The notes beneath the pieces were generated by a model. That model saw only the letters and a list, made by a program, of their open reading frames with translations, did not search any database and was not told the origin of the DNA. 52,188 nucleotides of DNA from a virus (Duplodnaviria > Caudoviricetes). Shown here piece by piece: positions 3,731-50,781 of the stretch. Location of the stretch: the IMG/VR virus record IMGVR_UViG_3300032216_001137, positions 1-52,188 of that record; one strand, written 5' to 3'. The position numbers were made by a program, and so were the translations under genes. Within the stretch, counting starts at the first letter, position 1. Each line of letters begins with the position of its first letter.

Positions 3731-3731
3731 T

Positions 3732-6690: not shown

Positions 6691-7289
6691 TAATCAATCA
6701 CCTCTAAAGAATATTTTTCACCCATAGCAAAGACTCCGGTTCCAGAAAAATGACCTACATCCTTAAAAATATATTTCTTGTAAGGAATATTACTAAACAT
6801 TGTTTTAAGATCTGGGAAAGTATCGTAGTCTATATCATCCATTAAAATAATACCGCTCCAACCCTTTTCTTCTAAAAACTTAATCATTGGTGGCTCTTGC
6901 TTACCATCATGAGGATCAACATCAATCAAAATAATGGAAACCTTGTCATAATCAATTGATGAATCTTCCATAAAATTTCCAATTCTTAAATCAATATTTG
7001 ATTTATTTAAATTGGTATGGCAGGGCCATTGTATTAAATCATATGATATAACATTATTAGATTCATTATTTGATAGAGCAATTGCAGAATTACCATTCTT
7101 TGTACCAATATCTAAAATCAATGTATCGTTTACTTGATTTGAAATATTTGCATATAATTTATATGGCTGAGTTTCATGCACATCAACATCAACTTGCCAA
7201 GCATCGGAATTTCCAGAATAATAAAAATATTGCATAATTTTTGAAAAATCTGTATCCAAAACATCATTTTTATTTATTACAATGTTCAT
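6690..7289 (-). CDS. SAM-dependent methyltransferase (Methyltransf_24-like)
   Basis: ILDIGTKNGNSA, VISYD, ILIDVDPHDG, G.ILMDDI and GHFSGTG. Confidence 0.78.
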   Translation of the reverse strand: MNIVINKNDVLDTDFSKIMQYFYYSGNSDAWQVDVDVHETQPYKLYANISNQVNDTLILDIGTKNGNSAIALSNNESNNVISYDLIQWPCHTNLNKSNIDLRIGNFMEDSSIDYDKVSIILIDVDPHDGKQEPPMIKFLEEKGWSGIILMDDIDYDTFPDLKTMFSNIPYKKYIFKDVGHFSGTGVFAMGEKYSLEVID

Positions 7290-22682: not shown

Positions 22683-25600
22683 TTATTTATTTAATAGCAT
22701 AGTAACGCTTGATGTTAATTCTTCAATTTTTATTTGTTGTTCTTGAACGACTGCCCATAATATGGCTATCATTCCATTAGCCCCGTATCCCTTCGGATTG
22801 CCATCTTCATCATATGTGGCAAGTTGCGGCATCTTATCTGCAACATCCTCTGCAATAAATCCAAAATTTTCTATATTCTGATCATCATCTGGAAGAAGTG
22901 ATTTGTATGTTACAGGAACAATTTTAAAAGCATCATAAATATTTATTGAACTTGAATTTAAAATTTTATTTGATAAAACAGAAGGACTTAATTGTGAAAA
23001 ATTAGATAAAGAAAATATATCTTTTTTATATTCTTGCTTAGAAGAAAATCTATAAATACTATAATTAGGTGTGCTTCCAAAGAATACCAATGGGTCGTTG
23101 GCTGTGCTTGTTGTTGGTGTGTTATAAATCGCCACTGACCTTACTACTGCTCTTGTGGTAGAATTTGTACCCCACCCAAGATATATATAACTAGTAAGAT
23201 TATCATTTCCTATGTTTATGATGTTACCAGATTGTAAATCTATATTTCCAGCACTATACAGTCCGATACTATTATTAGTCACCTCCGACCAAGTTGCACC
23301 ATTTGCACTTTCAACTGAAATTGTTGCATTAGCATATGAACTAAGCCAACCAGCAGTATTCCCGTCTGGGCCGTCTAATTGTATAGAAGGGTATCCAACT
23401 ATGGATGTATCTGAAGCATTGCTTGGAGTTCTTGCCCAAATTCTAACATTTTGTTCAATCCTAGTACCATTACCTGATGGCGTTGTTCCAAGAATTAGAT
23501 ACGGAGTTATAGTTCCAAGATCATTGTATAATGCTGATCTAAAAAATGCATATGGGGAAGCAGTAGTTGGCCTAACTCTATATGATGTTTCAAGGGAAAT
23601 TGTTGAAGTACCAGTAGTTGGGACAGTTTGAGTAAATAAATAAGTTCCCGCACTTCCAGAAGTTGAATTAATTGAATTTGAAGATATAGCCCATCCACCA
23701 ATAGAGCCAGATTGACCATTAATAAAGCCAGTAATACTTGCACTTGTTGCATAAAGATTACCAGAATAATCAACTCTAAAAGGTGCCGTCGATCTATTTG
23801 CTACAGCAGATCCAGCGAAAAATGATATTTCATTTGAAGCAGGTGCTGTTGGATATACGGGGGCATATATTCCAACGCAGGCAGATGTGATACCTGCCTG
23901 ATTTACTGTCCAACCACCAATATTTGCAGAAGTAGAATAAAGAAAACCATTAGAATTTACAACAAATAAACTGTTTACCCCTGTTTTGTTTATTCCACCG
24001 GCATAAAATACGTTTCCAGTACCAACTGACATACCATAATATTTACCTGATGTTTGAGCATAAAGAAGGCCGGGTTCTAATGACCATCCACCAATATTTG
24101 CTGATGAAGAATACATAAAACCATTTGGATCTGCATAAAAATATGCATTTGTCCCAAGTTTATCTGTAGCGCCAGCATAAAAGACACCACCATTTAATGC
24201 CATGCCATAATATCTACCTGAAGTTTGAGCATAAAAAAGATTTGGCTCTAACGTCCAACCTGCAACATTACCATATTGAGATGTTACAGATCCAGAAAAA
24301 GATCCTGATGTAGCATAAACATTGCCTGTAAAAGATCCTGAACCATTTATAGTAGCACTACCTGCAATATAAACATTGCTTCCATCAAATCTAAGATAGT
24401 TAGTTGTGCTGCCAATATCTATAGCAGGGTTTGATCCATTATATCCAACATACCATCCAATTCCAGTTCCATAAACAGTTTTACCGGCTTTTATTTCACC
24501 ACCAGATATTACTGTCATAGGGGCAAAAAATTGTGGTGCCCCGCTTGAAGCAGTTATTGCAGCAGTTTTACCATTTAATGTTGTTGCGCTACCTGTTAAT
24601 GCTGTTACAGAACCACTGACAGAACCACTTAAAGTATTTATTGAATTATTTAAAGTTGTACTACTTGTATTAATACTATTATTTAAACTTGTACTTGCAG
24701 TATTAACTTGATTGTTTGTTGCTGCTGTTCCACCTGTAACATTTATAGTTCCATTAATTGTTAATGAAGCGCCATCCCATTGCATATAATTTCCAGCAGG
24801 ATTACCAATATCGAATCTTGGGGTACCTCCATTAAATTCTAACAACCAACCAGTGCCAGTTTGCCATGCAGTTTTACCTGCTTTTATAGAGCCAGCAGAA
24901 AGCACTGTCATTGGATTAGCAAGTGCCCCTGTTGAATCAAATGCCGATGTTTTAGTATTTAATTGATTAACAGATCCACTAACAGAACTGCTAAGAGTAT
25001 TAATATTATTATTTAGAGTAGAACTTGCATTACTTACTTGAGTATTAGTAGCAGCATTACCGCCAGTAACATTAATTTGACCATTAACAATAAGACTTGA
25101 TCCATCCCATGTTAATTGATTGCCAAGACTAAAACTGCCAGTTCCATCAACATAAAATGGTGTATTTACGTTAGAAAAAGATCCCGTCGTGCCATTTGTG
25201 ATAGCAATTTGATTAGATGAATTCTGAGCGCCAACTTGCATTATTAATTTAAGAGTATTTCCACCCTGAATTTGGAATCTTGTTCCATCATATTTAAAAT
25301 AAGTTAAAGGATTACCAACACGGAACTGATTATTAACTAACCACCAGTTATACGAATCTAATCTTATACCATTACCAGAATCATGATACCAACTATCAGT
25401 AGCACTTGCCCCTTCTGGGGGATGAAAGCCCATAGTTAATTGTTGAATACTTACTCTACCGGAGCCGCTAGTATTAACAATACCGCTAGGAGTGATCGCT
25501 AATGATCCATAATTAATGAAAAATTGCGTACTATTTGGAATCGAAACAATTGTATAAGCATTTGTACCTTTACTTGATGCTGAATAATTTAAAAGATTTA

Positions 25601-28600
25601 AACCATTAATATTTGGTAAATCAGTAAATATAACAATTGCAGAAGAACTAAAGAAGTGTCCTCCAGATGCTGTGAACAAAATAGTACTTGCAGTTGTATT
25701 AATACTTGCACTAGTAACATTAGCAAAAAGGGTTGGTGAAGCAATTGGAGTTACAGAATCAATAACCCCGCGAATTGTTCCATTAACATTCAATAATGAT
25801 AAATTATCAGGTTGAAGTGTCGTGACATATGTTCCATTAGTACCAGAATAATTAGATGTTAAAGTAATAGTGGCATTTGTTGTATATGTAATTGATGAAA
25901 TTCGAACACCCGTTGGAAGAACCGAACTCGTTACTATAGTATTTGGAATAACAGTACTTGCACTATTATTATATGTTGTTGTTATAACTGGCGAACCATT
26001 AGTATATGTTGCTGAAAGCGTTATGATTGATGCTGAACCCTTGCTAGGGGCAAAGGTTAGTTGGTTGCCTAGTGAGAAGTAACCATTTGAATCTACATAG
26101 AATCCAGTATCTCCAGTTCCATAGTTACCATAACCTATATATATTTTAGGGCTGGCTGAAGAGTTTAATGCTACTCTAGTTGTTCCAGTTCCGGTTCCTA
26201 TTTCTTGGCTTGTTAATGACCATCCACCAATGTTACCAACTGATGCAGTTATTTGTCCAGCAATTGAAGCATTGCTTGCAATTAAATTACCACTATTTGT
26301 TACGCTAAATGGAGCAGAAGAAGGAATATCATTTCCTGCATAAATTGCATAATTTCCTGTTGTTAATGCAACTCTGGTTCCCGCTGCGCCTGCTGTCAAT
26401 GATGATGTTGATATTGACCATCCTCCAATAGAACCAGCACTTGCGGTTATTTGACCAACAATAGAAGCACTCTGAGCAACCATTGCTCCAGCCTGATTTA
26501 CTGTAAATTGATTAGAGCCTAAGTTTAATCCAGTTGTTGATGATAGTACAATATTTGTTGCAGATAAACTATTTAATCCAATAGTAAATCCACCAATATT
26601 TCCGGTGGAAGCAGAAATATTTCCACTGAACGATCCTGATGTTGCATTAACTGATCCAGTAATGTTAGCATTAGTTGCTGTTAGATTACCAGCATAGTCA
26701 ACTTTAAATGGTGCCGTTGCCCTATTTGCTAAAGCAGAACCTGCAAAAATTGCAATGTCTGATGATAATGGGGATGTCGGAGCATACAGACCGACGCTTG
26801 ATGATGTCAATGCACTACTTGATATTAACCATCCACCAATAGTACCGGCACTTGCTGTAATTTGTCCAGTAATAGAAGCACTTTGAGCAATCATATTACC
26901 AGAAGAATCAACAGTAAATTTATAAGGAGCAGTTGCCGGAACCGCAATATATGATCCTACAATAGACCCCGTATTACCAAAATTTAAATTAACGCCTGTA
27001 GCACTTATACCACCAATAAGAGAACCTGATGACATAACTGCGCCTGAGAAAGACGCTGCTTGTGCATATAAAATACCACCACTAGTAACATTAAATTTTG
27101 CAGCCGCACCCGCGCTACTAGTTGCTCCTGCAAAAATGGTGGAAGTTGCATTTGTTGGATCTAAACCTGTAACATTTGGACTTGTTCCACCATATAATGC
27201 TGTTGGGGTTATTATCCATCCACCAATACTTCCTACTGATGAACTAATATTTCCAGTAAATGTTCCAGCAGATGCATAAACATTTCCAGTAAATGATCCA
27301 GATGTAGCATTAATTGACCCTGTGAAATACCCGGCTGAAGCATAAATATTTCCCGTAAAAGATCCAGATGTTGCAACAACGCGACCATCATAATAAACCC
27401 TAAAAGGCGCTACCGATGCATTAGAAAAACTAGCACCAGCGTAAATTGCTACAGTGCTACCAGATGGATTTGGTGGAGATGAGAAGCCAGTTTGACTAGT
27501 TGGATCTCCAATTGCTAAAGTTGAACCATTCCAAGCAAACTTTGTGCCAAGATTGAACGAACCGTCACTTGCTGATAATAAGAATGTAGGATTGCCTGCC
27601 GCATTATAACCTTGAACACCACTAGCATTGAATATCGTTCTTGCTCCAGAATTTGCCGCGCTACCTGCAAAAAGCGAACCATTTGGACCTACCTGTATAT
27701 TTCCACTAAAAGATCCAGACCTAGCAATTATTTTACCATCAACTAAGAAATTAATTCCATCCCATGTAACAGAACCATTTGCTAAACTAAAATTACCTGA
27801 ATCATACCAATAATTACTAGTATTTATTTTAATTCCATTAAGCCCTCCACCAAAGGCTCCTATCCCCAAGGTACCTGCAGTCATAGATCCAGTAAATTGA
27901 CCTGATTGTGCTACTATGCTACCCGCAACAGTTAACGTACTTGCAGTTGGATTGAATGTTAATTTATCTCTAAGACTAAAATATCCATCTCCATCAAGAT
28001 AGAATCCAGTAGTTGTATTATTATATAATCCTACTGCACCTGAATATATTTTACCAGCGACAGATGCATTACCGGCAAGGAGGTTTATTTGATTAGACGA
28101 CGTTCCACCAATACTTATTTTTTGATCTATAAATGCAGTACTTGCAGTAATCAATGATGCTGATAATGAATTAGCCTGTATTCTTCCAGCATTTAAAAAT
28201 CCAGTTGTTATTTTACCCGCATCTAGTGTTGATATTGTTGAATTAGTTAATGGTCTTTCTACCCAAGCCGTTGTTCCTGCAGCAGATGCAGTTCTAAAAG
28301 CAGTTATAGATGCACCAGTGGTATCTACAACAAACCAAGTATCTCCAGATGCAGTCGCTGTTGGAACAGTCGTTGATGCATTATAAAATATTATATTTTT
28401 ACCATTTGCACTAGTCTGTGCAGAAATTGCAACTCCTGAAGCAGATATTGCTGGATCTGTACCAATTGCAATTGATAATGGTGTCGGAGAAGCCCCTAGA
28501 TTTCCTTGGGTATCGAAGGGCTGTGCTGTAACATAATATGTCGTATTCCAAAAGGGTACAGCAAATCCTATCCTATTATTTAAAGAATTAAATGTTTGTA

Positions 28601-30152
28601 CATTAGCAGTTATTCCTGAATCAGTAGCAGATCTTACTCTATACCCACCGATTCCTACTGGTGGATTAAAATCTGTAGATGTTGCAACAGGAGTCCACGA
28701 TGCTGTAATAATATTATCATTAGCAAATACTGCAAAATTTGTTACTGATGCTGGAGCAGTTGTGTCTGCTGGAACATTTATTGTTTGTAATGCTGACCAT
28801 GAACTAGTATTATTAGATTTATCATATGACGCTACCCACCAATAATAAGTGTTTCCAGCATATCCAAGAAAGTTTGTTTTAACAGGATAATTTGCAGATG
28901 CTGGCGTAGACTGTACAGTTCCCAGTGCAGATGAAGTATTAGTTAAACTATATTTAAGATAATATCCTGCAAGATCCGTGTCTGCTACCGGAGTCCATGA
29001 TGCTGTTATATTAAATCTTTGACCACTAATATCTGTTGAGTCTAAAGATGCTGATGAATAGAATCCAGCATTAGGAGTGGCAGGTGGGATAGTATCTGCT
29101 ACAACAGGGTTTATTGGTATTACTGATGTTATAGGTCCATCTGGACCGGGCTGTCCAAACAAATCAAAATGTCTAGCAAGAACATAGAAAGTATTATAAT
29201 TAGGGACATTGCTATATTCTGCATATGTTCCAGTACCTCTCCAAACAGGGGCAGTAACACTGGCAAAGAAGGGCGTTGAATTGCTTGCATAAACTTCTGT
29301 GTATGAATAATCAGCAAACGATGATGACGGTGCAGACCATGATGCTGAAAAACCTTTAATCAATGGTGCCACAGTTATTGTTGGATAATCTGTTGGTACG
29401 GGGTTTGTTACAGTAAATGTTCTTGGCGTAGATGATGTTTGATTAAATATATCTACAGCAACGATAGAACCTGAGAAAGATCCTGAAGGCCGACCAAAAT
29501 CATTCACATTTTGTTGATATGTTAATTGGAATAATGCACTAGTTGTTGAATTAGAAATTGCTGGAATACTATAAACAACAGTCTTAGGAATATTTGAATT
29601 ATTTAATGTTAACTTATAATGTGTAATATCATTATCTGATGATGCCGTTACCGTATTCCATTGTAAATATAAATCTGGTGAACTAAATGATGAAGTAGAA
29701 TTTGTTATATTTGTTGGAACAGCATTATTTGCAGATGTGCTTAATGGATCAGAAAGATTACCGCTTGTATCTCTTGATCTTATTTGAAGATTAATGGATG
29801 GTGTTGCGCTGCCAAATAAATTTATATTATCTTGTACAGTAAATCTAAATGGTGAAAATGAATAATATGTTCCACTTGTACTAGACGTAGAACTTGATAC
29901 AATTATTTGAAAATCTTTAAAATCTGTTGAGACTGCTGCTGCAGAACCTGACCATGATGTAATAAACGTAGGTGTTGAAAAATCTGTAATAGGAAACTGT
30001 GGTACGGCTGGTGCAGTTATATCTTTGATAGTGGTAAAAACATATGCAGGAGATAAATCAGATTTTGTTCCAGAACTTTCTACTGAAGAAATTCTAATCA
30101 TATATTTTTGACCGGGGGCCAATTGAGATAAAGTTCTTATTATTTTTGCCAT
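22683..30152 (-). CDS. Giant tail fibre (2489 aa): N-terminal FN3 repeats, beta-repeat shaft, C-terminal intramolecular chaperone (Peptidase S74-like)
   Basis: D.T.P..P...ITASW FN3 signatures; about nine IGGW-type repeats; SSKQEYKKDI...GFIAEDV...VQEQQIKIEEL C-terminus. Confidence 0.85.
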   Translation of the reverse strand: MAKIIRTLSQLAPGQKYMIRISSVESSGTKSDLSPAYVFTTIKDITAPAVPQFPITDFSTPTFITSWSGSAAAVSTDFKDFQIIVSSSTSSTSGTYYSFSPFRFTVQDNINLFGSATPSINLQIRSRDTSGNLSDPLSTSANNAVPTNITNSTSSFSSPDLYLQWNTVTASSDNDITHYKLTLNNSNIPKTVVYSIPAISNSTTSALFQLTYQQNVNDFGRPSGSFSGSIVAVDIFNQTSSTPRTFTVTNPVPTDYPTITVAPLIKGFSASWSAPSSSFADYSYTEVYASNSTPFFASVTAPVWRGTGTYAEYSNVPNYNTFYVLARHFDLFGQPGPDGPITSVIPINPVVADTIPPATPNAGFYSSASLDSTDISGQRFNITASWTPVADTDLAGYYLKYSLTNTSSALGTVQSTPASANYPVKTNFLGYAGNTYYWWVASYDKSNNTSSWSALQTINVPADTTAPASVTNFAVFANDNIITASWTPVATSTDFNPPVGIGGYRVRSATDSGITANVQTFNSLNNRIGFAVPFWNTTYYVTAQPFDTQGNLGASPTPLSIAIGTDPAISASGVAISAQTSANGKNIIFYNASTTVPTATASGDTWFVVDTTGASITAFRTASAAGTTAWVERPLTNSTISTLDAGKITTGFLNAGRIQANSLSASLITASTAFIDQKISIGGTSSNQINLLAGNASVAGKIYSGAVGLYNNTTTGFYLDGDGYFSLRDKLTFNPTASTLTVAGSIVAQSGQFTGSMTAGTLGIGAFGGGLNGIKINTSNYWYDSGNFSLANGSVTWDGINFLVDGKIIARSGSFSGNIQVGPNGSLFAGSAANSGARTIFNASGVQGYNAAGNPTFLLSASDGSFNLGTKFAWNGSTLAIGDPTSQTGFSSPPNPSGSTVAIYAGASFSNASVAPFRVYYDGRVVATSGSFTGNIYASAGYFTGSINATSGSFTGNVYASAGTFTGNISSSVGSIGGWIITPTALYGGTSPNVTGLDPTNATSTIFAGATSSAGAAAKFNVTSGGILYAQAASFSGAVMSSGSLIGGISATGVNLNFGNTGSIVGSYIAVPATAPYKFTVDSSGNMIAQSASITGQITASAGTIGGWLISSSALTSSSVGLYAPTSPLSSDIAIFAGSALANRATAPFKVDYAGNLTATNANITGSVNATSGSFSGNISASTGNIGGFTIGLNSLSATNIVLSSTTGLNLGSNQFTVNQAGAMVAQSASIVGQITASAGSIGGWSISTSSLTAGAAGTRVALTTGNYAIYAGNDIPSSAPFSVTNSGNLIASNASIAGQITASVGNIGGWSLTSQEIGTGTGTTRVALNSSASPKIYIGYGNYGTGDTGFYVDSNGYFSLGNQLTFAPSKGSASIITLSATYTNGSPVITTTYNNSASTVIPNTIVTSSVLPTGVRISSITYTTNATITLTSNYSGTNGTYVTTLQPDNLSLLNVNGTIRGVIDSVTPIASPTLFANVTSASINTTASTILFTASGGHFFSSSAIVIFTDLPNINGLNLLNYSASSKGTNAYTIVSIPNSTQFFINYGSLAITPSGIVNTSGSGRVSIQQLTMGFHPPEGASATDSWYHDSGNGIRLDSYNWWLVNNQFRVGNPLTYFKYDGTRFQIQGGNTLKLIMQVGAQNSSNQIAITNGTTGSFSNVNTPFYVDGTGSFSLGNQLTWDGSSLIVNGQINVTGGNAATNTQVSNASSTLNNNINTLSSSVSGSVNQLNTKTSAFDSTGALANPMTVLSAGSIKAGKTAWQTGTGWLLEFNGGTPRFDIGNPAGNYMQWDGASLTINGTINVTGGTAATNNQVNTASTSLNNSINTSSTTLNNSINTLSGSVSGSVTALTGSATTLNGKTAAITASSGAPQFFAPMTVISGGEIKAGKTVYGTGIGWYVGYNGSNPAIDIGSTTNYLRFDGSNVYIAGSATINGSGSFTGNVYATSGSFSGSVTSQYGNVAGWTLEPNLFYAQTSGRYYGMALNGGVFYAGATDKLGTNAYFYADPNGFMYSSSANIGGWSLEPGLLYAQTSGKYYGMSVGTGNVFYAGGINKTGVNSLFVVNSNGFLYSTSANIGGWTVNQAGITSACVGIYAPVYPTAPASNEISFFAGSAVANRSTAPFRVDYSGNLYATSASITGFINGQSGSIGGWAISSNSINSTSGSAGTYLFTQTVPTTGTSTISLETSYRVRPTTASPYAFFRSALYNDLGTITPYLILGTTPSGNGTRIEQNVRIWARTPSNASDTSIVGYPSIQLDGPDGNTAGWLSSYANATISVESANGATWSEVTNNSIGLYSAGNIDLQSGNIINIGNDNLTSYIYLGWGTNSTTRAVVRSVAIYNTPTTSTANDPLVFFGSTPNYSIYRFSSKQEYKKDIFSLSNFSQLSPSVLSNKILNSSSINIYDAFKIVPVTYKSLLPDDDQNIENFGFIAEDVADKMPQLATYDEDGNPKGYGANGMIAILWAVVQEQQIKIEELTSSVTMLLNK

Positions 30153-31084
30153 TATGAAATTGTCATCCTGTATTCAATATCCATTTCTGAACCTACAGTT
30201 TTTGTAAACGAGTCAGTAGTCCCATCCCCATTTCTTATTCCAATTAATGCTCTACTAACTAAACATAGATTATCATCTGATAAAGATACGTCACGAAACT
30301 TAGCACCATCTATTGTTAAAACAGAAGTTTTTGAATTTGATTCAACTGTTAAATAAATTCTAGTTACATTATTATTAAATGTAGCATCTTTATAAATTGA
30401 AGATACGGGCACAGAATATATTTGATATCCAGTTGAAGAAGCACTTAGCGGAAGGGCTATGCTTGCCGTTGCAGGAGTTGGTATTTGACTATCAGTAAAC
30501 TTAATAGTGACAAGCCTCGTTGCAGATGTTTGCAAAGTATTAACATTATATAAAATATCAAGATAATCACTGCTTGAATAGCCACTGATATCTAATGATG
30601 TTGTACAATCAACAGCATACGAAGTATTGGCTGCAACAGGCAGATCGTTAGAACCGACCCTACCACTAGTATTTAATGAAGCAGTTGTTCCAACTCCAGT
30701 ATTAAGCCAATATTCATCAAAATTAAATATTACCCTATCATCAAAACCATTAGAGAAAGGGTTTCTTGTATAAGAAAATACACCAAGTTCATATATTTTA
30801 CCCGCAAGTGCTGCTGGGAAAGATGCTTTTAAAATAATCTCTCCAGTTGACGTATCATAACTTTTCAAGTTAATAGGGTATCTAGAAAATTCGTATTGTA
30901 GAATAGAATCTGTAATTGAAGGATCGGTTGAATTCATTGCTCCAATAGCAATCGAACCCGCCCACTCTGCTACTGAACCAGTAAGATATTTTCTAATAAT
31001 ATTTATTCCAGACGTAGTAATAATATTGTCAGATTCTAATTTTTCTACTCCATCAATATAAATTGAATATTTGCCCTTAAGCAA
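30152..31084 (-). CDS. Minor tail/baseplate protein
   Basis: NIITTSG...IAIG...L.YEF.R...IYELGVF...K..GSEMDIEY; position in the tail cluster. Confidence 0.7.
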   Translation of the reverse strand: MLKGKYSIYIDGVEKLESDNIITTSGINIIRKYLTGSVAEWAGSIAIGAMNSTDPSITDSILQYEFSRYPINLKSYDTSTGEIILKASFPAALAGKIYELGVFSYTRNPFSNGFDDRVIFNFDEYWLNTGVGTTASLNTSGRVGSNDLPVAANTSYAVDCTTSLDISGYSSSDYLDILYNVNTLQTSATRLVTIKFTDSQIPTPATASIALPLSASSTGYQIYSVPVSSIYKDATFNNNVTRIYLTVESNSKTSVLTIDGAKFRDVSLSDDNLCLVSRALIGIRNGDGTTDSFTKTVGSEMDIEYRMTIS

Positions 31085-31625
31085 TTTGAGTTACCTCTAT
31101 CCTATACTCAACAGCATTGACGACTTCATCAAAGGACACGGTTACATCTACATATGGTGTTCCGTCTGGGGCATATGTTATTGTTCCAACATAATTATTA
31201 TTGTTGTACACTGAACCATTAGTATCTGAGCCTGACTGAGTTGAAGAAATAGTAAATGTTTTATTTGTAACTGAAGTTATTGTAAATGTTCCATTAAACG
31301 ATGTATTGGCAAAACCTGAAACTATAACAATGTCTCCTGTTGAATACCCATGATTTTGTGTAGTTGTATACGTTGCAGTAGAACCATTTGCGCTTACAGA
31401 TACAGATGTAAAAATTTGTGATGGACCGGCAGAAATATTTGTTGGTGGAAGAAGATAATTTGATGTTACCGGCACAGTAGTAGGAGGAACTATAGTTGGT
31501 GATTGACTTGCAACAATGTCAAGAATGTTTACTGTAGCATTTAAATCCACCGATGAGTCAGATGCAACTTGAGTTGCTATCCTAGTACTAAATCCTTTTT
31601 TACTACTTTTACCCCTAGCAGACAT
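31077..31625 (-). CDS. Minor tail protein with an inserted beta domain (HG..TGD.V..SG type)
   Basis: ATYTTTQNHGYSTGDIVIVSG...FNGTFTITSV..KTFT; position in the tail cluster. Confidence 0.65.
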   Translation of the reverse strand: MSARGKSSKKGFSTRIATQVASDSSVDLNATVNILDIVASQSPTIVPPTTVPVTSNYLLPPTNISAGPSQIFTSVSVSANGSTATYTTTQNHGYSTGDIVIVSGFANTSFNGTFTITSVTNKTFTISSTQSGSDTNGSVYNNNNYVGTITYAPDGTPYVDVTVSFDEVVNAVEYRIEVTQIA

Positions 31626-32185
31626 TATTTTCTCCCCAACGCCCTAACTTTAAGGGTGGTGCTAAGACCACCGCTATCAAAGTTATGATTAATTGCTATA
31701 ACAAGATATTTTTTAGTTTTATTTGTATCGTCTACATTAATTTTACCATAATTGTATATTACATTCACAATGTCACCTATTTGAATGAACGGGTTTCCAA
31801 ATATTTCTATCTCAAATGCGTTTTGTTTTATATGATATATTTGTTCAAAAAGGCTGGCAATTCCTTGTGCTTGAGATTCATTTTGTATTAATTTAGATTC
31901 TATTGTTAATTCTTGAGCATCACCATAACTTAAATCAACATTATATTTACCAGTAGATTGTTTGATTAATGAAATACCATTAAGTTGAAAGTACGGCTCA
32001 GTACCGGGTATACTAACATCATTACCAGTTCTAGTAAGAAAAACATTATATGGTGCAGTATTAATTGCCACAAATTTAACATTCTCACAATTAACTAGCA
32101 AATTTGAGAAAACAACAACTTTTGATATCTCTATTGTTTTAGTAACATCAACTTTCGCTAAATTTTTTATTCCATTATCAGCCAT
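31625..32185 (-). CDS. Baseplate hub C-terminal-like protein
   Basis: IESKLIQ...A...EIFGNPFIQIGDIV...YLV..INH....GLSTTLKVR; own SD (AAGGTAGG). Confidence 0.65.
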   Translation of the reverse strand: MADNGIKNLAKVDVTKTIEISKVVVFSNLLVNCENVKFVAINTAPYNVFLTRTGNDVSIPGTEPYFQLNGISLIKQSTGKYNVDLSYGDAQELTIESKLIQNESQAQGIASLFEQIYHIKQNAFEIEIFGNPFIQIGDIVNVIYNYGKINVDDTNKTKKYLVIAINHNFDSGGLSTTLKVRALGRK

Positions 32186-32193
32186 GAATTAAC

Positions 32194-35913: not shown

Positions 35914-36359
35914 TAAATTTGCTCCCAAGCAGCATTCATATCATACATATCATAATTTGTTAAAGATCGTTTACTTAATGTTAAACTAAAATCTGAAAAA
36001 AATGCATCATAAGTATCAATTACTCCTACTGCACCCATTCTTATTGTCAATTTTATAGGCTGACCATTATAAGTTTCATAAAATGTTTGAAGAGCATCTG
36101 CGCCAGCCAAACCATCAACTGTTGAAGCACTAGAATTAGGCAACTCTGTCCAACTCGTAGCAAAACTATATTTACTACTAACAACATATTTTCTTAGCGT
36201 GCCGTTTGCCATTCTAGCACTTTTTTCTATTCTTTCCGTACTAATAGCAAGAGGCTGCCTATTATGATCGGTAAGTCTTAAAGATGCTGAATTTTGTAAA
36301 ACTCCACCAACATATGGAGTCAGGACTATGAGAGATGGGATAGTAAAAGTGATAGCCAT
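35913..36359 (-). CDS. Distal tail protein (Dit-like)
   Basis: LTDHNRQP...ERIEKSARMANGTLRKY...SW..LP; directly after the tape measure. Confidence 0.72.
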   Translation of the reverse strand: MAITFTIPSLIVLTPYVGGVLQNSASLRLTDHNRQPLAISTERIEKSARMANGTLRKYVVSSKYSFATSWTELPNSSASTVDGLAGADALQTFYETYNGQPIKLTIRMGAVGVIDTYDAFFSDFSLTLSKRSLTNYDMYDMNAAWEQI

Positions 36360-45103: not shown

Positions 45104-45409
45104 TTACATTCCCGGCCCTTCATAACCAAGTCCCATTCCAATGCCGAAACCGGCTTGACGATCATTGAGAGTTGTAATATCTTCCTTATCATCTGGGCCT
45201 GACATGTCAATACCATTGACTGCAGCGATAAATTCTCGTTCTCTTTTTTCGCGTTTTCTAATGGAATTGGTAATTGATATAAGTTCTTCAAGGGTGAGAC
45301 TGTCTTCAAGATCGTCATAATTTTTCCACTGACCAAGAACAAAAACTTCTGATTCTAACTCGACAAGATCTAGTTGTTCCCAACTAGACTTGCCCCCAGA
45401 AGGTTTGGG
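45104..45409 (-). CDS. Tail assembly chaperone, -1 frameshifted extension (lambda gpGT-like)
   Basis: The -1 frame reads KPSGGKSSWEQLDLVELESEVFVLGQWKNYDDLEDSLTLEEL...GFGIGMGLGYEGPGM*; TAA at 45104-45106 directly abuts the tape measure TTG. Confidence 0.8.
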   Translation of the reverse strand, partial: PKPSGGKSSWEQLDLVELESEVFVLGQWKNYDDLEDSLTLEELISITNSIRKREKREREFIAAVNGIDMSGPDDKEDITTLNDRQAGFGIGMGLGYEGPGM

Positions 45410-45705
45410 TCGGCTGATTTAAGACCTCCCGCGATTTCAAGTATCTTCATCATTGTTGGTACTTCAATTAGTTCTTCAAATTTATCTTTATCTTTTGCAA
45501 CTTCTGGTAATGTTTTTTCTAAACATACCATGCAGGCTTCAATAAAAATTTCCATAGCATCATTTTCATCTTGGATATCATCATTATCCATCTTCTTAAT
45601 GATTTCCATGAATTTTCTTAGTTGTTTAATTGATAGTGGCTTTACGGTAATTGTTTCACCATCTGATAATTCAATTTCTATTTCATCGTATACTTTGGTA
45701 GCCAA
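45370..45705 (-). CDS. Tail assembly chaperone (gpG-like)
   Basis: Between major tail and tape measure; AGGAGG SD, TTG start; I.L.DG..I.VKPL.IK.LRKFM. Confidence 0.85.
   Translation of the reverse strand: MATKVYDEIEIELSDGETITVKPLSIKQLRKFMEIIKKMDNDDIQDENDAMEIFIEACMVCLEKTLPEVAKDKDKFEELIEVPTMMKILEIAGGLKSADPNLLGASLVGNN
45403..45409 (-). promoter_or_regulatory. -1 ribosomal slippery heptamer C CCA AAC
   Basis: Canonical X XXY YYZ in the correct phase (GAC CCA AAC), 10 codons before the chaperone stop. Confidence 0.75.
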
Positions 45706-45728
45706 TTGTTCCTCCTATGTATATGTAA

Positions 45729-45737
45729 ATTATATCA
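45729..45737 (-). promoter_or_regulatory. Extended -10 promoter for the chaperone/tape measure operon
   Basis: TGATATAAT downstream of a terminator. Confidence 0.6.
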
Positions 45738-45755
45738 AAATAACAATTAAATACA

Positions 45756-45787
45756 TAAAGAACAAGACCGCCCAATGGACGGCCTTG
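45756..45787 (-). terminator. Rho-independent terminator after the major tail gene
   Basis: CAAGGCCGTCC-ATT-GGGCGGTCTTG followed by TTCTTTA. Confidence 0.75.
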
Positions 45788-45809
45788 AACTTTTATTAAG
45801 TTATATTTA

Positions 45810-46487
45810 TTAACCAGTAAACTGAGAACCAGAATACAAACGGTCAATAATCTTACCATACTCAGATCCTGTGAAAGCAGTATCTGGGAGGACACGGAAT
45901 GTTACTGGGAATACTGTTGCAGCATCACGCTTAAGTGAATGTGCGCTAGTTTCCATAGAAACAACACGACGAGCAAGATAAACTCTTTCAGTATTTGAAC
46001 CTGAAGTAGGATCAGAAGAACCTGATGTACCCCATACAGGTCCATCTGGAGCATACTGAGATACGAAGACTAAACTTCTTTCAATAGGTTCGGAACCGAT
46101 TGCACCTGATGGAATAGACATTACTGTTGAAGATGAGTTATATGCAACAGTACCTGCATTGCCAAAGGCAAATTCTAGGTTCTGTAATGTTGCTTCAGCA
46201 AGGGTCGTCTTAAGTGTTACCTTAAGTGACTGCTTGAAGATTTTAGCAACGTCAAGTAACTGATCGACAGTAACTTCACCATAAGTTGGTTCATATGAAA
46301 GTTCAATACCTTCACTTGTAAGACCAGTTTCTACCCATGAACTAGAAATACCTCTCATAATTGTAGCAGCAGAGTTACCATATGAACTTGACCATGCAGG
46401 TTCAACAGGTCTATTAAGACCATAAGATGCACTAACAAAGACGTTAGCGGCACCTACGATTACGTTTTTTACGTTGGGTTGAGCCAT
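45810..46487 (-). CDS. Major tail (tube) protein
   Basis: NVIVGAA..F, GLTSEG.ELSYEP.YGEV.VDQLLD, TTLAEATL.NL and FPVTFR.LP. Confidence 0.88.
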   Translation of the reverse strand: MAQPNVKNVIVGAANVFVSASYGLNRPVEPAWSSSYGNSAATIMRGISSSWVETGLTSEGIELSYEPTYGEVTVDQLLDVAKIFKQSLKVTLKTTLAEATLQNLEFAFGNAGTVAYNSSSTVMSIPSGAIGSEPIERSLVFVSQYAPDGPVWGTSGSSDPTSGSNTERVYLARRVVSMETSAHSLKRDAATVFPVTFRVLPDTAFTGSEYGKIIDRLYSGSQFTG

Positions 46488-46547
46488 TTATTTTTTCACC
46501 ACCTTTATTTTTTTTTTAAATAATTTGGTGACACTTCCTCACTTCTT

Positions 46548-46556
46548 ATATTACCA
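46548..46556 (-). promoter_or_regulatory. Extended -10 promoter for the major tail gene
   Basis: TGGTAATAT upstream of a roughly 55-nt leader. Confidence 0.5.
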
Positions 46557-46567
46557 TAAATTTATCT

Positions 46568-47074
46568 TTAGGTATATCTATAATTTGAATTAATATTTCT
46601 AGTGTATTCATAAGAAAGTTTTATTGTAGCGTATAAATAGCCGCCCTCTTCATTACCATATTCTGGAGAAGTAATACTATCTACATAAATATAATGAAAA
46701 TTAAATGGAGAACCGTAAGAATATTTATTTACCTCTCTAGCAGAAATATCAAAACGTCTGAATACATCTTTGATAACTTCCAACATAGACCATAATTCTG
46801 AATATTTTTTACCAATTAATGTTAATGTTGCAGTGTCTGTGCAAATCCAAAATTGAGAATCATAGCCAGTATTTTCTATATCATAAACTATATAAGGCTG
46901 ATCTGGGACAAAATTTTGAAATTCTGGTACTTGTTGTGATGGAATAATTGGATTAAGATAGGAACTAAAACTTTCAACCCAATAATCTGTTTCAGATAAT
47001 ACTGACGCTGATGTAAGTTGATTCCACATATAATTTCTAATATCTGAAAATGGAATTTTAGTATAATCAGCCAT
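46568..47074 (-). CDS. Tail terminator-like protein
   Basis: PIIP.QQ.PEF...PYIVYD; position before the major tail gene. Confidence 0.7.
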   Translation of the reverse strand: MADYTKIPFSDIRNYMWNQLTSASVLSETDYWVESFSSYLNPIIPSQQVPEFQNFVPDQPYIVYDIENTGYDSQFWICTDTATLTLIGKKYSELWSMLEVIKDVFRRFDISAREVNKYSYGSPFNFHYIYVDSITSPEYGNEEGGYLYATIKLSYEYTRNINSNYRYT

Positions 47075-47790
47075 TAAAAACTCCTTGAAAGTCTGTCATA
47101 TTTATCACACACTATTTTAATACATGTATAGATATCAGATGAGTTATAATTATTCATTGACATTGTTTTAGCAATATCTTTTGAAAGTTCATCAAAAATA
47201 CCAGTCTTTCTAATAGCCGGTCCAAGTTTTGAAGATTCCCATTTACCAGTAAATTTTTCAACTGATCTAGTTGTTCTAACGCCACCGGGATTCTTTATCG
47301 TAATAGTAGTACCCTTTGGACGAAAAATTATTTTTCTTCCAGATGGGATAGTAACAATATTTCTGGTAACATATTGTACTGATTGACCAGATTCCATAAC
47401 CTGCGCCTTGTTTTTAAACACAACACTCTTACGAACACTCTTTCCATTTTTATTAGGAGTAGATAAAACTTTTGCAATAGGAACCTTAGTTTTTGAATTT
47501 GTAAAAACAATATCTAATTCTGCAGAATTTTTAGAAGAAATAGTTTTCTTAATTTTAAAAAGTTTATAATCATTTTCTCCAGTATGATTCCATTCATATA
47601 TATGATGAAATTCTTTAGGCCGCGCTCTTGCAGATACATTAATATCTTTAATATATTGTTTAGCAGCGATTGATGATACTGCGCGAGTAATATTATTTAA
47701 ATTTCTACTACTGGGAATACTCCCAAGATCTCTTTCTATTTTAGAAATTTGTCTATCAAATTTTTCTAAATCAATTTTAACTTGTAACAT
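47074..47790 (-). CDS. Neck/tail completion protein (basic)
   Basis: AR..P..FHHIYEW...G...LF, F.NKA.VME.G and NPGG; position. Confidence 0.65.
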   Translation of the reverse strand: MLQVKIDLEKFDRQISKIERDLGSIPSSRNLNNITRAVSSIAAKQYIKDINVSARARPKEFHHIYEWNHTGENDYKLFKIKKTISSKNSAELDIVFTNSKTKVPIAKVLSTPNKNGKSVRKSVVFKNKAQVMESGQSVQYVTRNIVTIPSGRKIIFRPKGTTITIKNPGGVRTTRSVEKFTGKWESSKLGPAIRKTGIFDELSKDIAKTMSMNNYNSSDIYTCIKIVCDKYDRLSRSF

Positions 47791-48217
47791 TATCTTGAAC
47801 ATTCACCCTTTCAAGAGTCACATTATAAAATACAAATCTACCAAATGGGTCTGTCATAGGATGACATGAAACTACCTCAAATATGGTGGGATTCTCAGAA
47901 AATACATCAGTTTCTGTAAATACAATCTGATTATCAGATGTTTTAATATTTGAAATTCTCCACCTTTTAGATAATTTATCCGTAAATTTTCCTCTAAGTT
48001 GTAAATTCTCAGTATACTTACCATTAGAATCATTAAATTTTTTACCGTCACCCCTCATAGACGCACCAGTACTTTTTTGTGGCAATAGGTGACATTTTAC
48101 TGTTTTTTGATATTTCCACGTTCTTAAAATTGCACCAGTAGTTGAATCTTGAGAATTTTCTTGCTCAAATATATCAGCAGACATATTCATTACTGATGAC
48201 ATATATATACTTCTCAT
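47777..48217 (-). CDS. Head-tail stopper-like protein
   Basis: M.ADI..Q...QD..TGAI.R.W...TIFEV...P..DPFG; position. Confidence 0.65.
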   Translation of the reverse strand: MRSIYMSSVMNMSADIFEQENSQDSTTGAILRTWKYQKTVKCHLLPQKSTGASMRGDGKKFNDSNGKYTENLQLRGKFTDKLSKRWRISNIKTSDNQIVFTETDVFSENPTIFEVVSCHPMTDPFGRFVFYNVTLERVNVQDNVTS

Positions 48218-49158
48218 ATTACAACAATCACAATATTCTTATATTGATCTAGAATTGAATCTACAATAGCATTTCCTGTTGAAGAAAACGCTGCTGAATT
48301 TAATTCAAAAGTAACTTCCGTCAAATTAACCTTGCTAAGGTATCTATTTCTCCATTGATAATCATTTGTCAAATAGTCTGATACAAGCATTACTGCAGCC
48401 GCCCGTATGTCTTGAGGAACATAAGGCCAACCAATTGTTCCTACAACACGATATCTTTTATTCTGTTTAAACCTTCCAGTAGAAGATTGATAAATTGGAT
48501 ATTCTGAATAGTTTGCTCTTGGAACATCGCCCGGTAGATTAGAATTAATTATATTAATAGTTTTACCAGTATCAGAAACAATTATACTATCGCCAAGAGC
48601 ATTATATCCAGCACTTGCCCTATATACTAAAACTTCATCTTCATAAATTTCATCAACTGACAACATTCTCTCAGTAAGAGAAAGAGAATCAGCATTAACG
48701 CCGTATTCAGTTTGACTATCATATCTTTTATTAAAATATTGATTGCAATAATTATTTATCTGAATTCTTGCCACTCTTTCAGCAAAGAGTATTTCTTCCG
48801 GCGTTATATAATTTTCATCAGATGGCGATACACCAATTTTTAATTCAGAAATTATTTCTGGAAGAGTAGCATATGGAGTAACCACTGCAGCATAACTATT
48901 CTCAGTTGCTGAAACTGAATTAAAACTATATGACCATTGAATAAGTAAATTTCTATCTACTGAAGAAACGGTTGGAGTAATCTGATAATAATACTGACCC
49001 AGACCCTCTTCATTAATAGCCGTTCCAGTAGCAATTGATGCACTCGTATCAGCATCAAAAACTTTTACTGTTGGTAACGAATCTGTATCAGTAGCAACAT
49101 TATTTTTATAGAAAATCATTTCATGTTTATGAAATGTATTACTAAATACTTCGTGCAA
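48214..49158 (-). CDS. Head-tail adaptor with N-terminal Ig-like domain
   Basis: VVTPYA, AE..AR..I..YC.Q.F, GW.YVP.DI..AA..L and TGN..VD.IL..Y. Confidence 0.75.
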   Translation of the reverse strand: MHEVFSNTFHKHEMIFYKNNVATDTDSLPTVKVFDADTSASIATGTAINEEGLGQYYYQITPTVSSVDRNLLIQWSYSFNSVSATENSYAAVVTPYATLPEIISELKIGVSPSDENYITPEEILFAERVARIQINNYCNQYFNKRYDSQTEYGVNADSLSLTERMLSVDEIYEDEVLVYRASAGYNALGDSIIVSDTGKTINIINSNLPGDVPRANYSEYPIYQSSTGRFKQNKRYRVVGTIGWPYVPQDIRAAAVMLVSDYLTNDYQWRNRYLSKVNLTEVTFELNSAAFSSTGNAIVDSILDQYKNIVIVVI

Positions 49159-49173
49159 TTAAAACGCCTCCGG

Positions 49174-49581
49174 TCAGGAATAATATTCCTGAATTTCTTT
49201 TGGTGTGGCTGGTCTAAAACCTTCTTCTTCATCAAAAATTCTTTGGGCTTGCCAATCTCCCATAGCAACATATGGATGCTCTCTAGTAAAAGTAAAACCA
49301 TTGGTTTCATACATTCCATTCTTCCGATCCATTTTTACTAAAACAGTAGCAGAAGAAGGCTCTGGAATATTTAATTGCTGATTTTTAATTTGAGCAGTAT
49401 TAACATAATCTTCTGGCTCATCTTTTTCTGCTGAGAAAAATTTTACATACAAATCATATGTAACACCTTCTTCATCTAACAGTGTAATCAAAGACTTTTT
49501 AGTCTTGACGGTTTCTGTATCTACGCCAAAACCTTCAGCAACTGTTTTTAATTCATCCAATTTCATTGATTCAAATGACAT
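49174..49581 (-). CDS. Head-associated hypothetical protein with N-terminal HeH/Rho-N-like domain
   Basis: MK..ELK.VAE.FGVD....KTK..LI..L; directly after the capsid gene. Confidence 0.65.
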   Translation of the reverse strand: MSFESMKLDELKTVAEGFGVDTETVKTKKSLITLLDEEGVTYDLYVKFFSAEKDEPEDYVNTAQIKNQQLNIPEPSSATVLVKMDRKNGMYETNGFTFTREHPYVAMGDWQAQRIFDEEEGFRPATPKEIQEYYS

Positions 49582-49605
49582 TTTTTAACCTTTCTATTTA
49601 TAACA

Positions 49606-49614
49606 ATTATATCA
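49606..49614 (-). promoter_or_regulatory. Extended -10 promoter for the head-completion genes
   Basis: TGATATAAT immediately after the capsid terminator. Confidence 0.6.
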
Positions 49615-49616
49615 GA

Positions 49617-49650
49617 AAATAGAAAAGGGAGGGCATAAGCCCTCCCTTTC
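49617..49650 (-). terminator. Rho-independent terminator after the major capsid gene
   Basis: AAAGGGAGGGC-TTAT-GCCCTCCCTTT followed by TCTATTT. Confidence 0.85.
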
Positions 49651-49665
49651 CAAATCTGATAATTA

Positions 49666-50781
49666 TCAGACGCTTGAAGTTGAAACCCACTTCGTATTAG
49701 AAGTTGGACTTGCAAGCGCATATGAATTGCTAACTGTTGATGTAGTCTGAGTTGTCTGTGTACCAGCAACATTGGCAAGACCAATGTTAGTAACAACAAC
49801 ATGTGCATCAAGGTTTTCAATTGCACAACCTACACGAATGTAGAGAGTGTATTCAATTGTATCCTTTTTAGGCTGGAAAGTACGGTAAACCGTAATATCA
49901 CGCTTAATTCCGACAATGAAGTTCTGTGGGAATGTAAGGTGAAGTTCTCCAGTTGTAGTGGACTCTGGCATCAATGGAACATTGATAACAGGAATGCCAA
50001 AAGCAAATGGTGTGATAGTACCGGGACCACCATCGTTTGCAGCAACATCACCACGGATAACGCCGGAAGCAATATCAAATGGGGTACCAAAGTTAGAACT
50101 ATTAGTATTGATTGCAAGGTTGTAGAGGTAATCCTGCACCAAGTTTGAACTTGTGAAGAATCTCAACTGGTTACGACGCTGCTTGTACTTACGGGGAAGG
50201 GCTTTGATTGCCTGATTAAAGACACCCATTCCTAGTGTAGAGTTATAAGCGTTAACGACATAACCACCGGCCTTTGCCTGCTTTGAGAAACCATCAAATG
50301 CTACCAAAAGTGTGTCTGATGATGCAGTATCTCCAGCAATAAGTAGATCTTCTACATCGTTTCCAGCCTGAGTAGCCATCATACGAGCAATATGATCTTC
50401 AAGATCAGTACCTTCAATGTTATCTTCAAGTGTTTCACTGGAAAGTTCCCAGTCAAGACGTAGTTTCTTTGTTGTCAAAGAAACCTTTGAAAAGTAAGCA
50501 TCTGAATTTACGATTGGGTATCCTGAGTCACCTACTGCATAGTTTCTTGGAAGCGCCTGATTAGCCGCACGAAGAATTCTCTGACCGACATTAACCTTGT
50601 CAATTTCTACTGTATCTGACTTCATGCGAATAGTGCGAGCAGCCTTTGTAAGAACAGTAGCATCCCACATGTAGTCAATAAATCTATTTGATTGTTCTGG
50701 GTAGAGAAGACCTCTGTTATCAGAAGTACTATTACCCATATCTGTTGTGTCAATTACTTTTTGAAGTAATTCATTACTCAT
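49666..50781 (-). CDS. Major capsid protein (HK97 fold)
   Basis: GLL.PEQ..RFIDY, L.TKKLRLDWELS.E.LEDNIEG, NDVEDL.I.GD and LP.KY; follows the protease; strong SD. Confidence 0.92.
   Translation of the reverse strand: MSNELLQKVIDTTDMGNSTSDNRGLLYPEQSNRFIDYMWDATVLTKAARTIRMKSDTVEIDKVNVGQRILRAANQALPRNYAVGDSGYPIVNSDAYFSKVSLTTKKLRLDWELSSETLEDNIEGTDLEDHIARMMATQAGNDVEDLLIAGDTASSDTLLVAFDGFSKQAKAGGYVVNAYNSTLGMGVFNQAIKALPRKYKQRRNQLRFFTSSNLVQDYLYNLAINTNSSNFGTPFDIASGVIRGDVAANDGGPGTITPFAFGIPVINVPLMPESTTTGELHLTFPQNFIVGIKRDITVYRTFQPKKDTIEYTLYIRVGCAIENLDAHVVVTNIGLANVAGTQTTQTTSTVSNSYALASPTSNTKWVSTSSV

Follow-up and report, generated by a model that had tools for sequence, protein, structure and literature searches.

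The tripeptide [S/T]-[A/G]-S is enriched in the outer virion proteins of uncultured siphophages with a GT11 gene cluster and may be an acceptor motif for O-glycosylation

Analysis of the uncultured phage record IMGVR_UViG_3300032216_001137 (Duplodnaviria; Caudoviricetes) revealed that a three-residue word, [S/T]-[A/G]-S, usually with a hydrophobic residue after it, is over-represented in the tail fibre and in the other outer proteins of the virion, relative both to their composition and to proteins that are not exposed. The stretch analysed, called the window below, is the whole contig record of 52,188 bases, and its long open reading frames (ORFs) all lie on the minus strand. Across related genomes the motif tracks a glycosyltransferase of family GT11: five of five genomes with GT11 were enriched and none of 18 without it. 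We read [ST][AG]S, with a probability of about one half, as the acceptor word at which transferases of the phage itself O-glycosylate its proteins in the cytoplasm. An earlier note on the window had proposed a sequon of this kind made of [S/T/N]-A-S and S-G-S; the excess and the restriction to outer proteins were borne out, the co-occurrence with GT11 clusters was added, none of the refuting conditions that the note had set and that were put to the test overturned the idea, and the link to glycosylation itself stands as a correlation.

An exact count in the fibre (2489 aa) gave the numbers estimated in the earlier note, SAS 14, TAS 15, NAS 7 and SGS 18, that is 54 sites of [STN]AS/SGS against 16.9 expected; none of 1000 whole-protein shuffles reached as high a count. 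The motif as redefined here, [ST][AG]S, also occurs 54 times. Counted by segment of the fibre, its observed and expected numbers were 9/3.4, 24/8.8, 13/3.2, 7/2.5 and 0/1.0. Shuffling within blocks of 20 to 200 residues left the expectation for the fibre unchanged (16.9-17.5; z 9.1-9.4), which rules out local composition as the cause.

The fibre has a repeated shaft unit and a weak, sub-threshold C-terminal match to the endosialidase chaperone domain (Peptidase_S74). Recognisable internal repeats hold 28 of the 54 sites under the stricter mask and 37 under the laxer one; the repeat words are ..ATSGSF[ST]GN.., ..AQSASI.GQITASAG.IGGW.., [TS]ASW[TS]P and the tandem ..NSINTLSGSVSGSV.., and the largest tripeptide excess in the fibre belongs to such words (GGW, IGG and GSF, for example). 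When only the later copies were masked (446 of 2489 residues, with 19 of the 54 sites), 35 sites remained against 12.0 expected. Under the harshest mask, which removed all repeat copies at the laxer threshold (1194 of 2489 residues), there remained 17 against 5.8. Internal repeats alone were ruled out as the explanation by this remaining three-fold excess.

Dipeptide preferences alone were excluded by a first-order expectation: the outer proteins of the window carry 76 [ST][AG]S sites against 47.8, and three other GT11-carrying genomes gave 139/95.0, 66/42.1 and 47/30.0, versus 309/303.8 for 16 other genomes pooled. Serine codons inside the motif match the other serine codons, and 51 distinct 9-mers were found among the 76 sites; the signal therefore lies at the protein level, and a DNA-level word or codon bias was discarded. 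A general trait of Ser/Thr-rich phage proteins was rejected as well, since 18 genomes of the same family and five unrelated phages were not enriched.

The composition of the motif was established by an unbiased ranking of the tripeptides of the outer proteins. SGS, SAS and TAS occupied ranks 2-4 in the window, ranks 1, 4 and 5 in G005 and ranks 1, 5 and 6 in G001, two relatives described below; in the outer proteins of a further relative, G052, TAS ranked first and SAS fifth. NAS, counted as a member in the earlier note, had to be dropped, its observed/expected ratio being only 1.54 in the window, 0.66 in G005 and 1.51 in G001. TGS belongs to the pattern (1.79, 2.43 and 1.60, respectively). 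For SGS, SAS and TAS in 11 other contigs pooled the ratios were 1.44, 1.15 and 1.00, and the words favoured there were instead SGT (1.93) and TAT (1.89).

The residue after the motif was hydrophobic at 54% of the sites in the window, against a background of 32%, and at 44% against 31% in G005; Thr or Gly was favoured one residue further on. The motif is directional: at position X of [ST][AG]X followed by a hydrophobic residue, the Ser:Thr ratio was 3.4-5.2 in GT11-carrying genomes and 0.67 in the others. This pattern suggests a beta-strand, in which the small middle residue and the hydrophobic residues would face the core and the hydroxyl residues would point outward. Three N-terminal sites of the fibre are copies of a recurring word, [TS]-A-S-W-[TS]-P, which we infer to be a strand.

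The description of some fibre sites as lying in fibronectin type III (FN3) loops was not supported, as the fn3 match is below threshold (23.4 bits, Pfam cut-off 25). Pfam searches with four pieces of the fibre gave nothing beyond this match and Peptidase_S74, and sequence searches of the PDB with the fibre and with its C-terminus gave nothing meaningful. The AlphaFold2 model of the major tail protein was of moderate confidence (predicted local distance difference test, pLDDT, 62.9) and was used for secondary structure and confidence only; three of the four sites fall within, or border on, stretches of pLDDT<50 (residues 147-163 and 220-225). The capsid model was unusable (mean pLDDT 34.2).

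Recurrence of the motif in structural proteins other than the fibre was confirmed. A string search located all 11 sequence contexts quoted in the earlier note, in the adaptor, the 168-aa protein, the major tail protein, the distal tail (Dit) protein, the hub and the 310-aa protein. The 13 non-fibre outer proteins pooled contained 17 sites against 8.7 for the motif as first defined (p=0.0075) and 22 against 9.4 for [ST][AG]S (p=0.0005). The 168-aa protein and the adaptor have one site each (LTSASV and DTSASI). The major tail protein has four, two of them in a lineage-specific loop (residues 154-163) and one in an SGS-bearing C-terminal extension (residues 218-225, nt 45813-45836). Two SAS sites were found in the Dit-position protein (0.5 expected), four sites in the hub (2.8 expected; TSASG and LSASL among them), one in the 182-aa and none in the 186-aa tail-tip protein, and three in the 310-aa protein (TTASL, ATASI and LSASS; 1.2 expected). 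Orthologues of this last protein carry more: 7/1.5 in G005, 9/1.5 in G052 and 10/1.8 in G058 (observed/expected).

The motif had also been described as scarce in the tape measure and in replication enzymes. The tape measure, an internal control, proved to be at expectation rather than depleted (6 against 5.9; 5/5.6 for [ST][AG]S), and the scarcity did hold for the 28 non-structural proteins (3 against 6.3). Across genomes, the observed/expected ratio was 0.55-1.1 for tape measures and 0.5-1.1 for non-structural proteins.

By gene order and protein similarity, the window is a siphophage that is syntenic with Streptomyces phage Wakanda and belongs to a large uncultured family. For this family, more than 598 loci were confirmed with the capsid and more than 539 with DnaE, and 80 of each were kept. 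Fourteen contigs were taken whole in a first round: the 11 of at least 58 kb among 28 screened, plus G001, G003 and G004. Outer proteins were set by position before counting, as the ORFs between the tape measure and p266/DnaB together with seven head-tail orthologues. The contigs are fragments, and a gene scored as absent may lie off the contig. For the tail-tip module, the motif of the earlier note stood at 2.81 times expectation in the window, 2.62 in G001 and 2.44 in G005, with 0.62-1.76 in the other genomes counted; the 2018-aa fibre of Wakanda carries 7 sites against 7.7. The window, G001 and G005 form one clade (100/99) in DnaE, and the first-round contrast is therefore a single event.

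A search for fibre-shaft homologues, in which the fibre locus search used a narrow alignment (the broad one was too divergent), returned 159, and the 120 listed are of Ser-rich and Thr-rich types. A Ser-type fibre outside the clade of the window led to G052, a complete genome of 96 kb whose DnaE is 57% identical to that of the window. Its observed and expected counts were 47/14.3 for the tip, 11/3.1 for the head-tail proteins, 3/4.2 for the tape measure and 7/13.5 for non-structural proteins.

A blind test was performed on 28 DnaE relatives, which were screened for PF00535 and PF01370; contigs were picked before any motif was counted. The picks were four of the five contigs with GT2 matches (the 22-kb G082 was left out), G070, which has epimerases only, and three of the four cluster-less contigs at least 90% complete; G058, G059, G070, G057, G064 and G071 were all selected by cluster status in this way. 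G058 was enriched (tip 35/11.1, head-tail 10/3.3) and G059 was not (14/9.7). The ratios were 0.84 for G070, 0.86 for G057, 1.17 for G064 and 1.66 for G071. The G079 contig holds no structural genes; that of G065 lacks the tape measure gene, and three Ser/Thr-rich ORFs on it gave 16/7.3.

GT11 (PF01531) was present in the window, G001, G005, G052, G058, G065 and G079, and absent from G059 and 18 other records searched. For tip and head-tail proteins pooled, the [ST][AG]S ratio was 2.59-3.48 in the five GT11-carrying genomes (window, G001, G005, G052 and G058); the 18 others stayed at 0.81-1.68, and the two ranges do not overlap (Mann-Whitney 3e-5, or 1.7e-4 without near-duplicates; these values ignore phylogeny). 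The comparison with relatives lacking the glycan cluster, which the earlier note had put forward, did not refute its proposal, none of the 18 being equally enriched. The non-enriched relatives and two unrelated phages (G033 and G034) show a milder excess of [ST][AG]T, 1.29-2.11, which probably reflects a structural background common in beta-rich phage proteins.

In a 23-row DnaE tree built with FastTree, from which the near-duplicates G001 and G024 were left out, the window paired with G005, G058 was sister to the cluster-less G007, G057, G010 and G012, and G052 grouped with G059, G065 and G079. A 17-row IQ-TREE tree of DnaE requires at least two label changes. On these trees the enriched genomes lie in at least two separate DnaE lineages. 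The 199-aa conserved cluster gene was considered as a marker of independent lineages and rejected: it is methyltransferase-like, spread over unrelated phages and makes no prediction about the motif.

G001 and G005, which have near-identical DnaE and diverged tail proteins, were used to follow individual sites. Conservation was 75-78% for motif residues and 62% for the remaining serines (93/120 vs 479/776, Fisher p=0.0007). The two genomes share 80 sites and have 40 and 47 private ones, and the totals hold at 120 and 127, which shows that site density is kept despite turnover.

In alignments of orthologues (13 in the case of the major tail protein), the capsid and tail tube sites of the enriched phages were mostly found in lineage-specific loops and terminal extensions. 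The window capsid ends in an additional Ser/Thr-rich stretch of about 34 aa (nt 49669-49770), which cluster-less relatives lack. In the capsid alignment, extensions were present in 2 of 13 sequences (window and G005) and absent from all 11 cluster-less orthologues; the G058 capsid (418 aa) is also extended, with three TAS sites in its C-terminal tail, and the tails of G005 and G058 carry TAS or SGS. A third type of capsid extension (…VKNVKVAAGYDARS…LPAARP; loci L038-L045), of about 23 aa and not Ser/Thr-rich, was seen in 8 of 32 relatives with a readable C-terminus.

The glycan gene cluster of the window is cut by the contig end and has a G+C content of 0.27-0.29, against 0.30-0.39 elsewhere in the window. 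Its map order is SIS isomerase, GHMP kinase, GT2/GT92-like, unknown, GT2, DUF5672, GT11-like, methyltransferase, GT17, methyltransferase-like, methyltransferase and NAD epimerase/dehydratase; GT2, GT2_4/GT92, GT11, GT17 and DUF5672 are matched above the Pfam cut-off. The GT11-like protein matches profile positions 189-297 of 298 only, the C-terminal third (E 1.3e-10 in a six-frame search). The clusters of G001 and G005 contain Gmd, further epimerases, FkbM methyltransferases and GT2, GT10, GT11 and GT25 genes; that of G052 contains Gmd, three further epimerases, two aminotransferases and GT2, GT10, GT11 and GT25 genes. GT10-family genes were thus seen in G001, G005 and G052.

Profiles for a priming phosphoglycosyltransferase (PF02397, PF00953), a Wzx-type flippase (PF01943), a Wzy/ligase/PglL-type enzyme (PF04932) and the ThyA family, which could make hydroxymethyl bases (PF00303), matched in none of the five enriched genomes, the complete G052 included. 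The absence of lipid-carrier enzymes is compatible with a stepwise transfer by soluble enzymes in the cytoplasm, the compartment in which virion proteins fold, although host enzymes could serve instead. A GT4-type match (PF00534) was not found on the stretches searched in the window, G001 and G058.

Several further observations concern sugar genes in the family. The clusters turn over faster than the backbone: many cluster genes of G001 and G005 are 42-63% identical despite their near-identical DnaE. The window epimerase is 85% identical to that of G005. A gene of the IMP dehydrogenase/GMP reductase family adjoins the cluster in G001 (cluster at 39.4-55 kb), G005 (65.6-79.7 kb) and G052. The cluster-less G010 (L105:13151-16941, L106:2934-7158) and G012 (L111:9126-10861) are sister phages in which a 'GlcNAc' glycosyltransferase (PF11397) is adjacent to DUF6065 proteins and to five genes for 2OG-Fe(II) oxygenases (PF13640); the pairing of PF11397 with such oxygenases resembles hydroxyproline-linked cytoplasmic glycosylation, and these genes may form a different system of protein modification within the family. 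Near the start of the structural region, a GT1/GT4-family gene is found in G005 (L097:3547-4581), G010 (L105:2682-3698), Wakanda, G003 and G004, hence in cluster-bearing and cluster-less phages; PF20706, 'GT4 in conflict systems', is a second match of this gene, whose position lies beyond the end of the window.

If the glycosylation reading is right, the motif would be under selection as a feature of the virion surface, on capsid, tail tube and joining proteins as well as on tail tip and fibre, with its serines facing outward. The cluster would act on proteins, its soluble glycosyltransferases O-glycosylating the motif in the host cytoplasm, and the outcome would be a sugar coat on the virion. 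The chain could be started on the serine by a GT11- or GT10-type fucosyltransferase-like enzyme or by another transferase of the cluster. The make-up of the clusters (nucleotide-sugar enzymes, methyltransferases, GT2, GT10, GT11, GT17, GT25) fits a soluble pathway. A more detailed version, which we consider unlikely as a whole, would have a fucosyltransferase-superfamily enzyme (GT11/GT10) O-glycosylate the last Ser of hydrophobic-[S/T]-[A/G]-S-hydrophobic on folded beta-sheet surfaces, and other cluster enzymes extend this into a methylated deoxy-sugar or heptose glycan, so that the virion exterior would be coated from capsid to fibre tip at encoded addresses; this would amount to a viral code for protein O-glycosylation.

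A number of points weigh against glycosylation. The records are all uncultured contigs and the evidence comes from sequence alone. The sites lie in strand-like contexts, unlike the disordered stretches typical of many O-glycosylation systems. The capsid tail of the window, by analogy the best candidate site, holds no [ST][AG]S, and the G052 capsid has no Ser/Thr-rich tail. Clusters of the window and of G001/G005 share only the GT11-like gene, methyltransferases and the epimerase, so that no common initiating enzyme is evident, and the GT11 gene may simply mark a particular type of cluster. G059, with two GT2 and two epimerase genes and no GT11, reached a ratio of only 1.43, on a contig about 50% complete. 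Five unrelated phages with the cluster's methyltransferase-like gene were not enriched (0.44-1.43). The genomes are related, and the association amounts to two or three independent contrasts, not 23; the G052 fibre, moreover, is not a blind test, because this genome was found through its Ser-type fibre. Cluster-less relatives already have a baseline of 1.28-1.69 for [ST][AG][ST]. A repeat unit conserved across the 120 listed homologues holds about half of the fibre sites, and the Thr-type shafts have T at the same positions (consensus ...LTATSAxITGxITATSGxIGGW); these positions are therefore structural in any case, and only the choice of Ser for Thr differs.

This last point leads to a structural explanation, possible though somewhat doubtful in our judgement, in which the word is a fold feature of beta-strand modules (fibres, decoration domains) that exist in Ser and Thr versions without any modification; the modules of one lineage would have spread by exchange, and the glycan cluster would co-travel with them or have an unrelated role. 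It agrees with the retention of the shaft positions as T-A-T or T-S-G in Thr-type homologues, with the division of the 120 listed fibre homologues into Ser-rich and Thr-rich types, 54 of them having an S-ratio of at least 2, with the [ST][AG]T excess of cluster-less relatives, with hydrophobic flanks as in a strand, with the 28 to 37 window fibre sites that lie in repeats and with the mosaic nature of the structural genes, in which capsid identity disagrees with DnaE identity. What it leaves unexplained is the switch to Ser at one position, given that the strand propensity of Ser is lower than that of Thr. The excess is also found in non-homologous proteins, in lineage-specific loops and in terminal extensions of capsid, tail tube and adaptor orthologues, and site density is maintained through turnover. 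It coincides with GT11 clusters in every one of the five cases and never occurs without them in 18 genomes; and either the sister group of G058 lost both motif and cluster or G058 gained both.

The cluster might instead modify phage DNA or else the envelope or a receptor of the host, the motif serving some other purpose of host or habitat, such as another modification or a low-stick surface. Phage glycosyltransferases are described in PMC12619734 as modifying DNA and host serotype, the clusters turn over fast, as surface-polysaccharide loci do, and the window contig ends inside its cluster. An indirect link of this kind is nevertheless improbable, as the lipid-carrier and ThyA-family enzymes named above were not found in the enriched genomes and it gives no reason why a directional three-residue word should track the cluster. 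As for a chance or composition artefact of Ser/Thr/Ala/Gly-rich proteins, picked post hoc, the motif was indeed chosen by eye and the small proteins of the window hold only 0-4 sites each. The fibre, however, stands at z of about 9 under global and local shuffles, the first-order expectation is exceeded 1.5-1.6 fold, and the excess was replicated in G001, G005, G052 and G058, genomes beyond the window from which the motif was taken; we give this explanation hardly any credence.

The features of the window are collected in Table 1. The gene order is Wakanda-like (Stanwilliamsviridae-type): protease and capsid, then tape measure, hub and fibre, then, beyond the fibre, DnaB, primase, a DnaE-type polymerase, RecA and a Cas4-like nuclease. 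Synteny with the annotated Wakanda region runs from the protease to the RuvC-like resolvase, and Wakanda has no glycan cluster at the matching position. The capsid is about 55% identical to those of cultured Streptomyces phages (residues 1-337), and DnaE groups with the Wakanda-like family.

Table 1. Coordinates of the features discussed, in positions of the window
Feature	Position	Strand	Basis
Glycan gene cluster, low-GC, cut by contig end	1..8919	-	Pfam
GT11-like gene	4441-5331	-	PF01531, 35.3 bits (cut-off 23.9)
Methyltransferase-like gene	6690-7289	-	S-adenosylmethionine (SAM)-binding motif
Tail fibre, 2489 aa	22683..30152	-	PHROG 19846 and 9413
310-aa tail protein adjoining the fibre	30152..31084	-	phrog_9983 tail protein, E 3e-32
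Two small tail-tip proteins, 182 and 186 aa	31077..32185	-	phrog_9998, phrog_10359 minor tail protein
Tail hub (Tal-position), 1244 aa	32194..35928	-	Position following Dit, cf. Wakanda gp37
Distal tail protein position (Dit), 148 aa	35913..36359	-	phrog_1194, synteny
Tape measure protein, 2914 aa	36359..45103	-	PF10145, phrog_10030
Major tail protein, 225 aa	45810..46487	-	PF25681, phrog_2175
Head-tail joining proteins, 168, 242, 146 and 314 aa (last = adaptor)	46568..49158	-	phrog_442 = head-tail adaptor; others PHROGs without assigned function
Head-tail adaptor, 314 aa	48214-49158	-	phrog_442
Major capsid protein, 371 aa	49666..50781	-	phrog_1623
Prohead protease	50808-52079	-	

An 87-aa ORF in another frame (49563-49826), rich in Leu, His and Gln, overlaps the end of the capsid gene and is most likely no gene. 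The tape measure has 2914 residues in the window and 1852 to 3892 among relatives; such sizes would imply a very long tail whose length varies across the family. The source of one fibre-shaft homologue (P0105) names a Candidatus Saccharimonadales metagenome-assembled genome, a faint hint on the host group and no more.

Were the glycosylation reading true, the glycosylation of phage virions would reach beyond the tails of two actinobacteriophage proteins to a programmable coat on every exposed protein, and glycan-shielded uncultured phages would be predictable from sequence. The clusters would be a source of candidate soluble protein O-glycosyltransferases with a three-residue address, useful for glyco-engineering, and the coat could account for the 10-15 kb that some phages devote to sugar genes.

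Known O-fucosylation sequons are cysteine-framed motifs of eukaryotic domains. The GT11 enzyme LmjFUT1 is described in bioRxiv 10.1101/2021.05.10.443387 as fucosylating a peptide serine in vitro, and the GT10 members FUT10/FUT11 in PMC11949838 as acting on folded EMI domains. The likeness to the present case lies in the GT11 genes of all five enriched genomes and in the putative acceptors, serines on folded beta structures; the difference is that the motif is not cysteine-framed and that the GT11-like protein of the window matches only the last third of the profile. Neither a phage or bacterial protein O-fucosyltransferase of this kind, nor a sequon for phage virion glycosylation, nor a fucosylated phage virion was found in the literature searched, in which subscription journals were outside coverage.

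In chloroviruses, cytoplasmic virus-encoded enzymes put methylated, fucose-containing glycans on the capsid at non-canonical sites. They resemble the phages studied here in having sugar enzymes of their own, which in the phages would be soluble as well, and, if the glycosylation reading is right, in a virion glycan; they differ in being eukaryotic giant viruses whose glycans are chiefly N-linked and occupy a few positions of a single protein, and in having no tripeptide Ser motif across proteins. The general O-glycosylation motif of Bacteroidetes, D-(S/T)-(A/I/L/V/M/T), is likewise three residues long and places a small or aliphatic residue beside the hydroxyl residue, but that system is periplasmic, uses lipid-linked glycans and requires Asp, and its machinery is absent from the five enriched phages.

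Soluble cytoplasmic transferases modify many serines on one long fibrous protein in the serine-rich repeat proteins (GtfA/GtfB) and in beta-helix autotransporters of the AIDA-I type (heptosylation), and words of the S-A-S type occur in serine-rich repeats. The window cluster similarly starts with heptose-pathway-like genes (SIS, GHMP kinase). Unlike the GtfA/GtfB type, the phage proteins have no long low-complexity Ser tracts, their sites are dispersed and the window has no PF00534 match.

Virion O-glycosylation by phage-encoded glycosyltransferases has reportedly been observed in mycobacteriophages by Freeman et al. in 2023. These too are siphophages with their own glycosyltransferases. According to PMC12619734, the glycans of mycobacteriophages sit at the C-terminal ends of capsid and tail tube subunits; among the cluster-bearing phages studied here, C-terminal extensions were seen on the capsids of the window, G005 and G058 and on the tail tube of the window, but not on the capsid of G052. 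The cluster, known here from genes alone, is far larger than in mycobacteriophages, with GDP-sugar synthesis, methyltransferases and five or more transferase families, and the word occurs throughout the set of outer proteins, the fibre alone having dozens of copies, instead of being confined to the termini.

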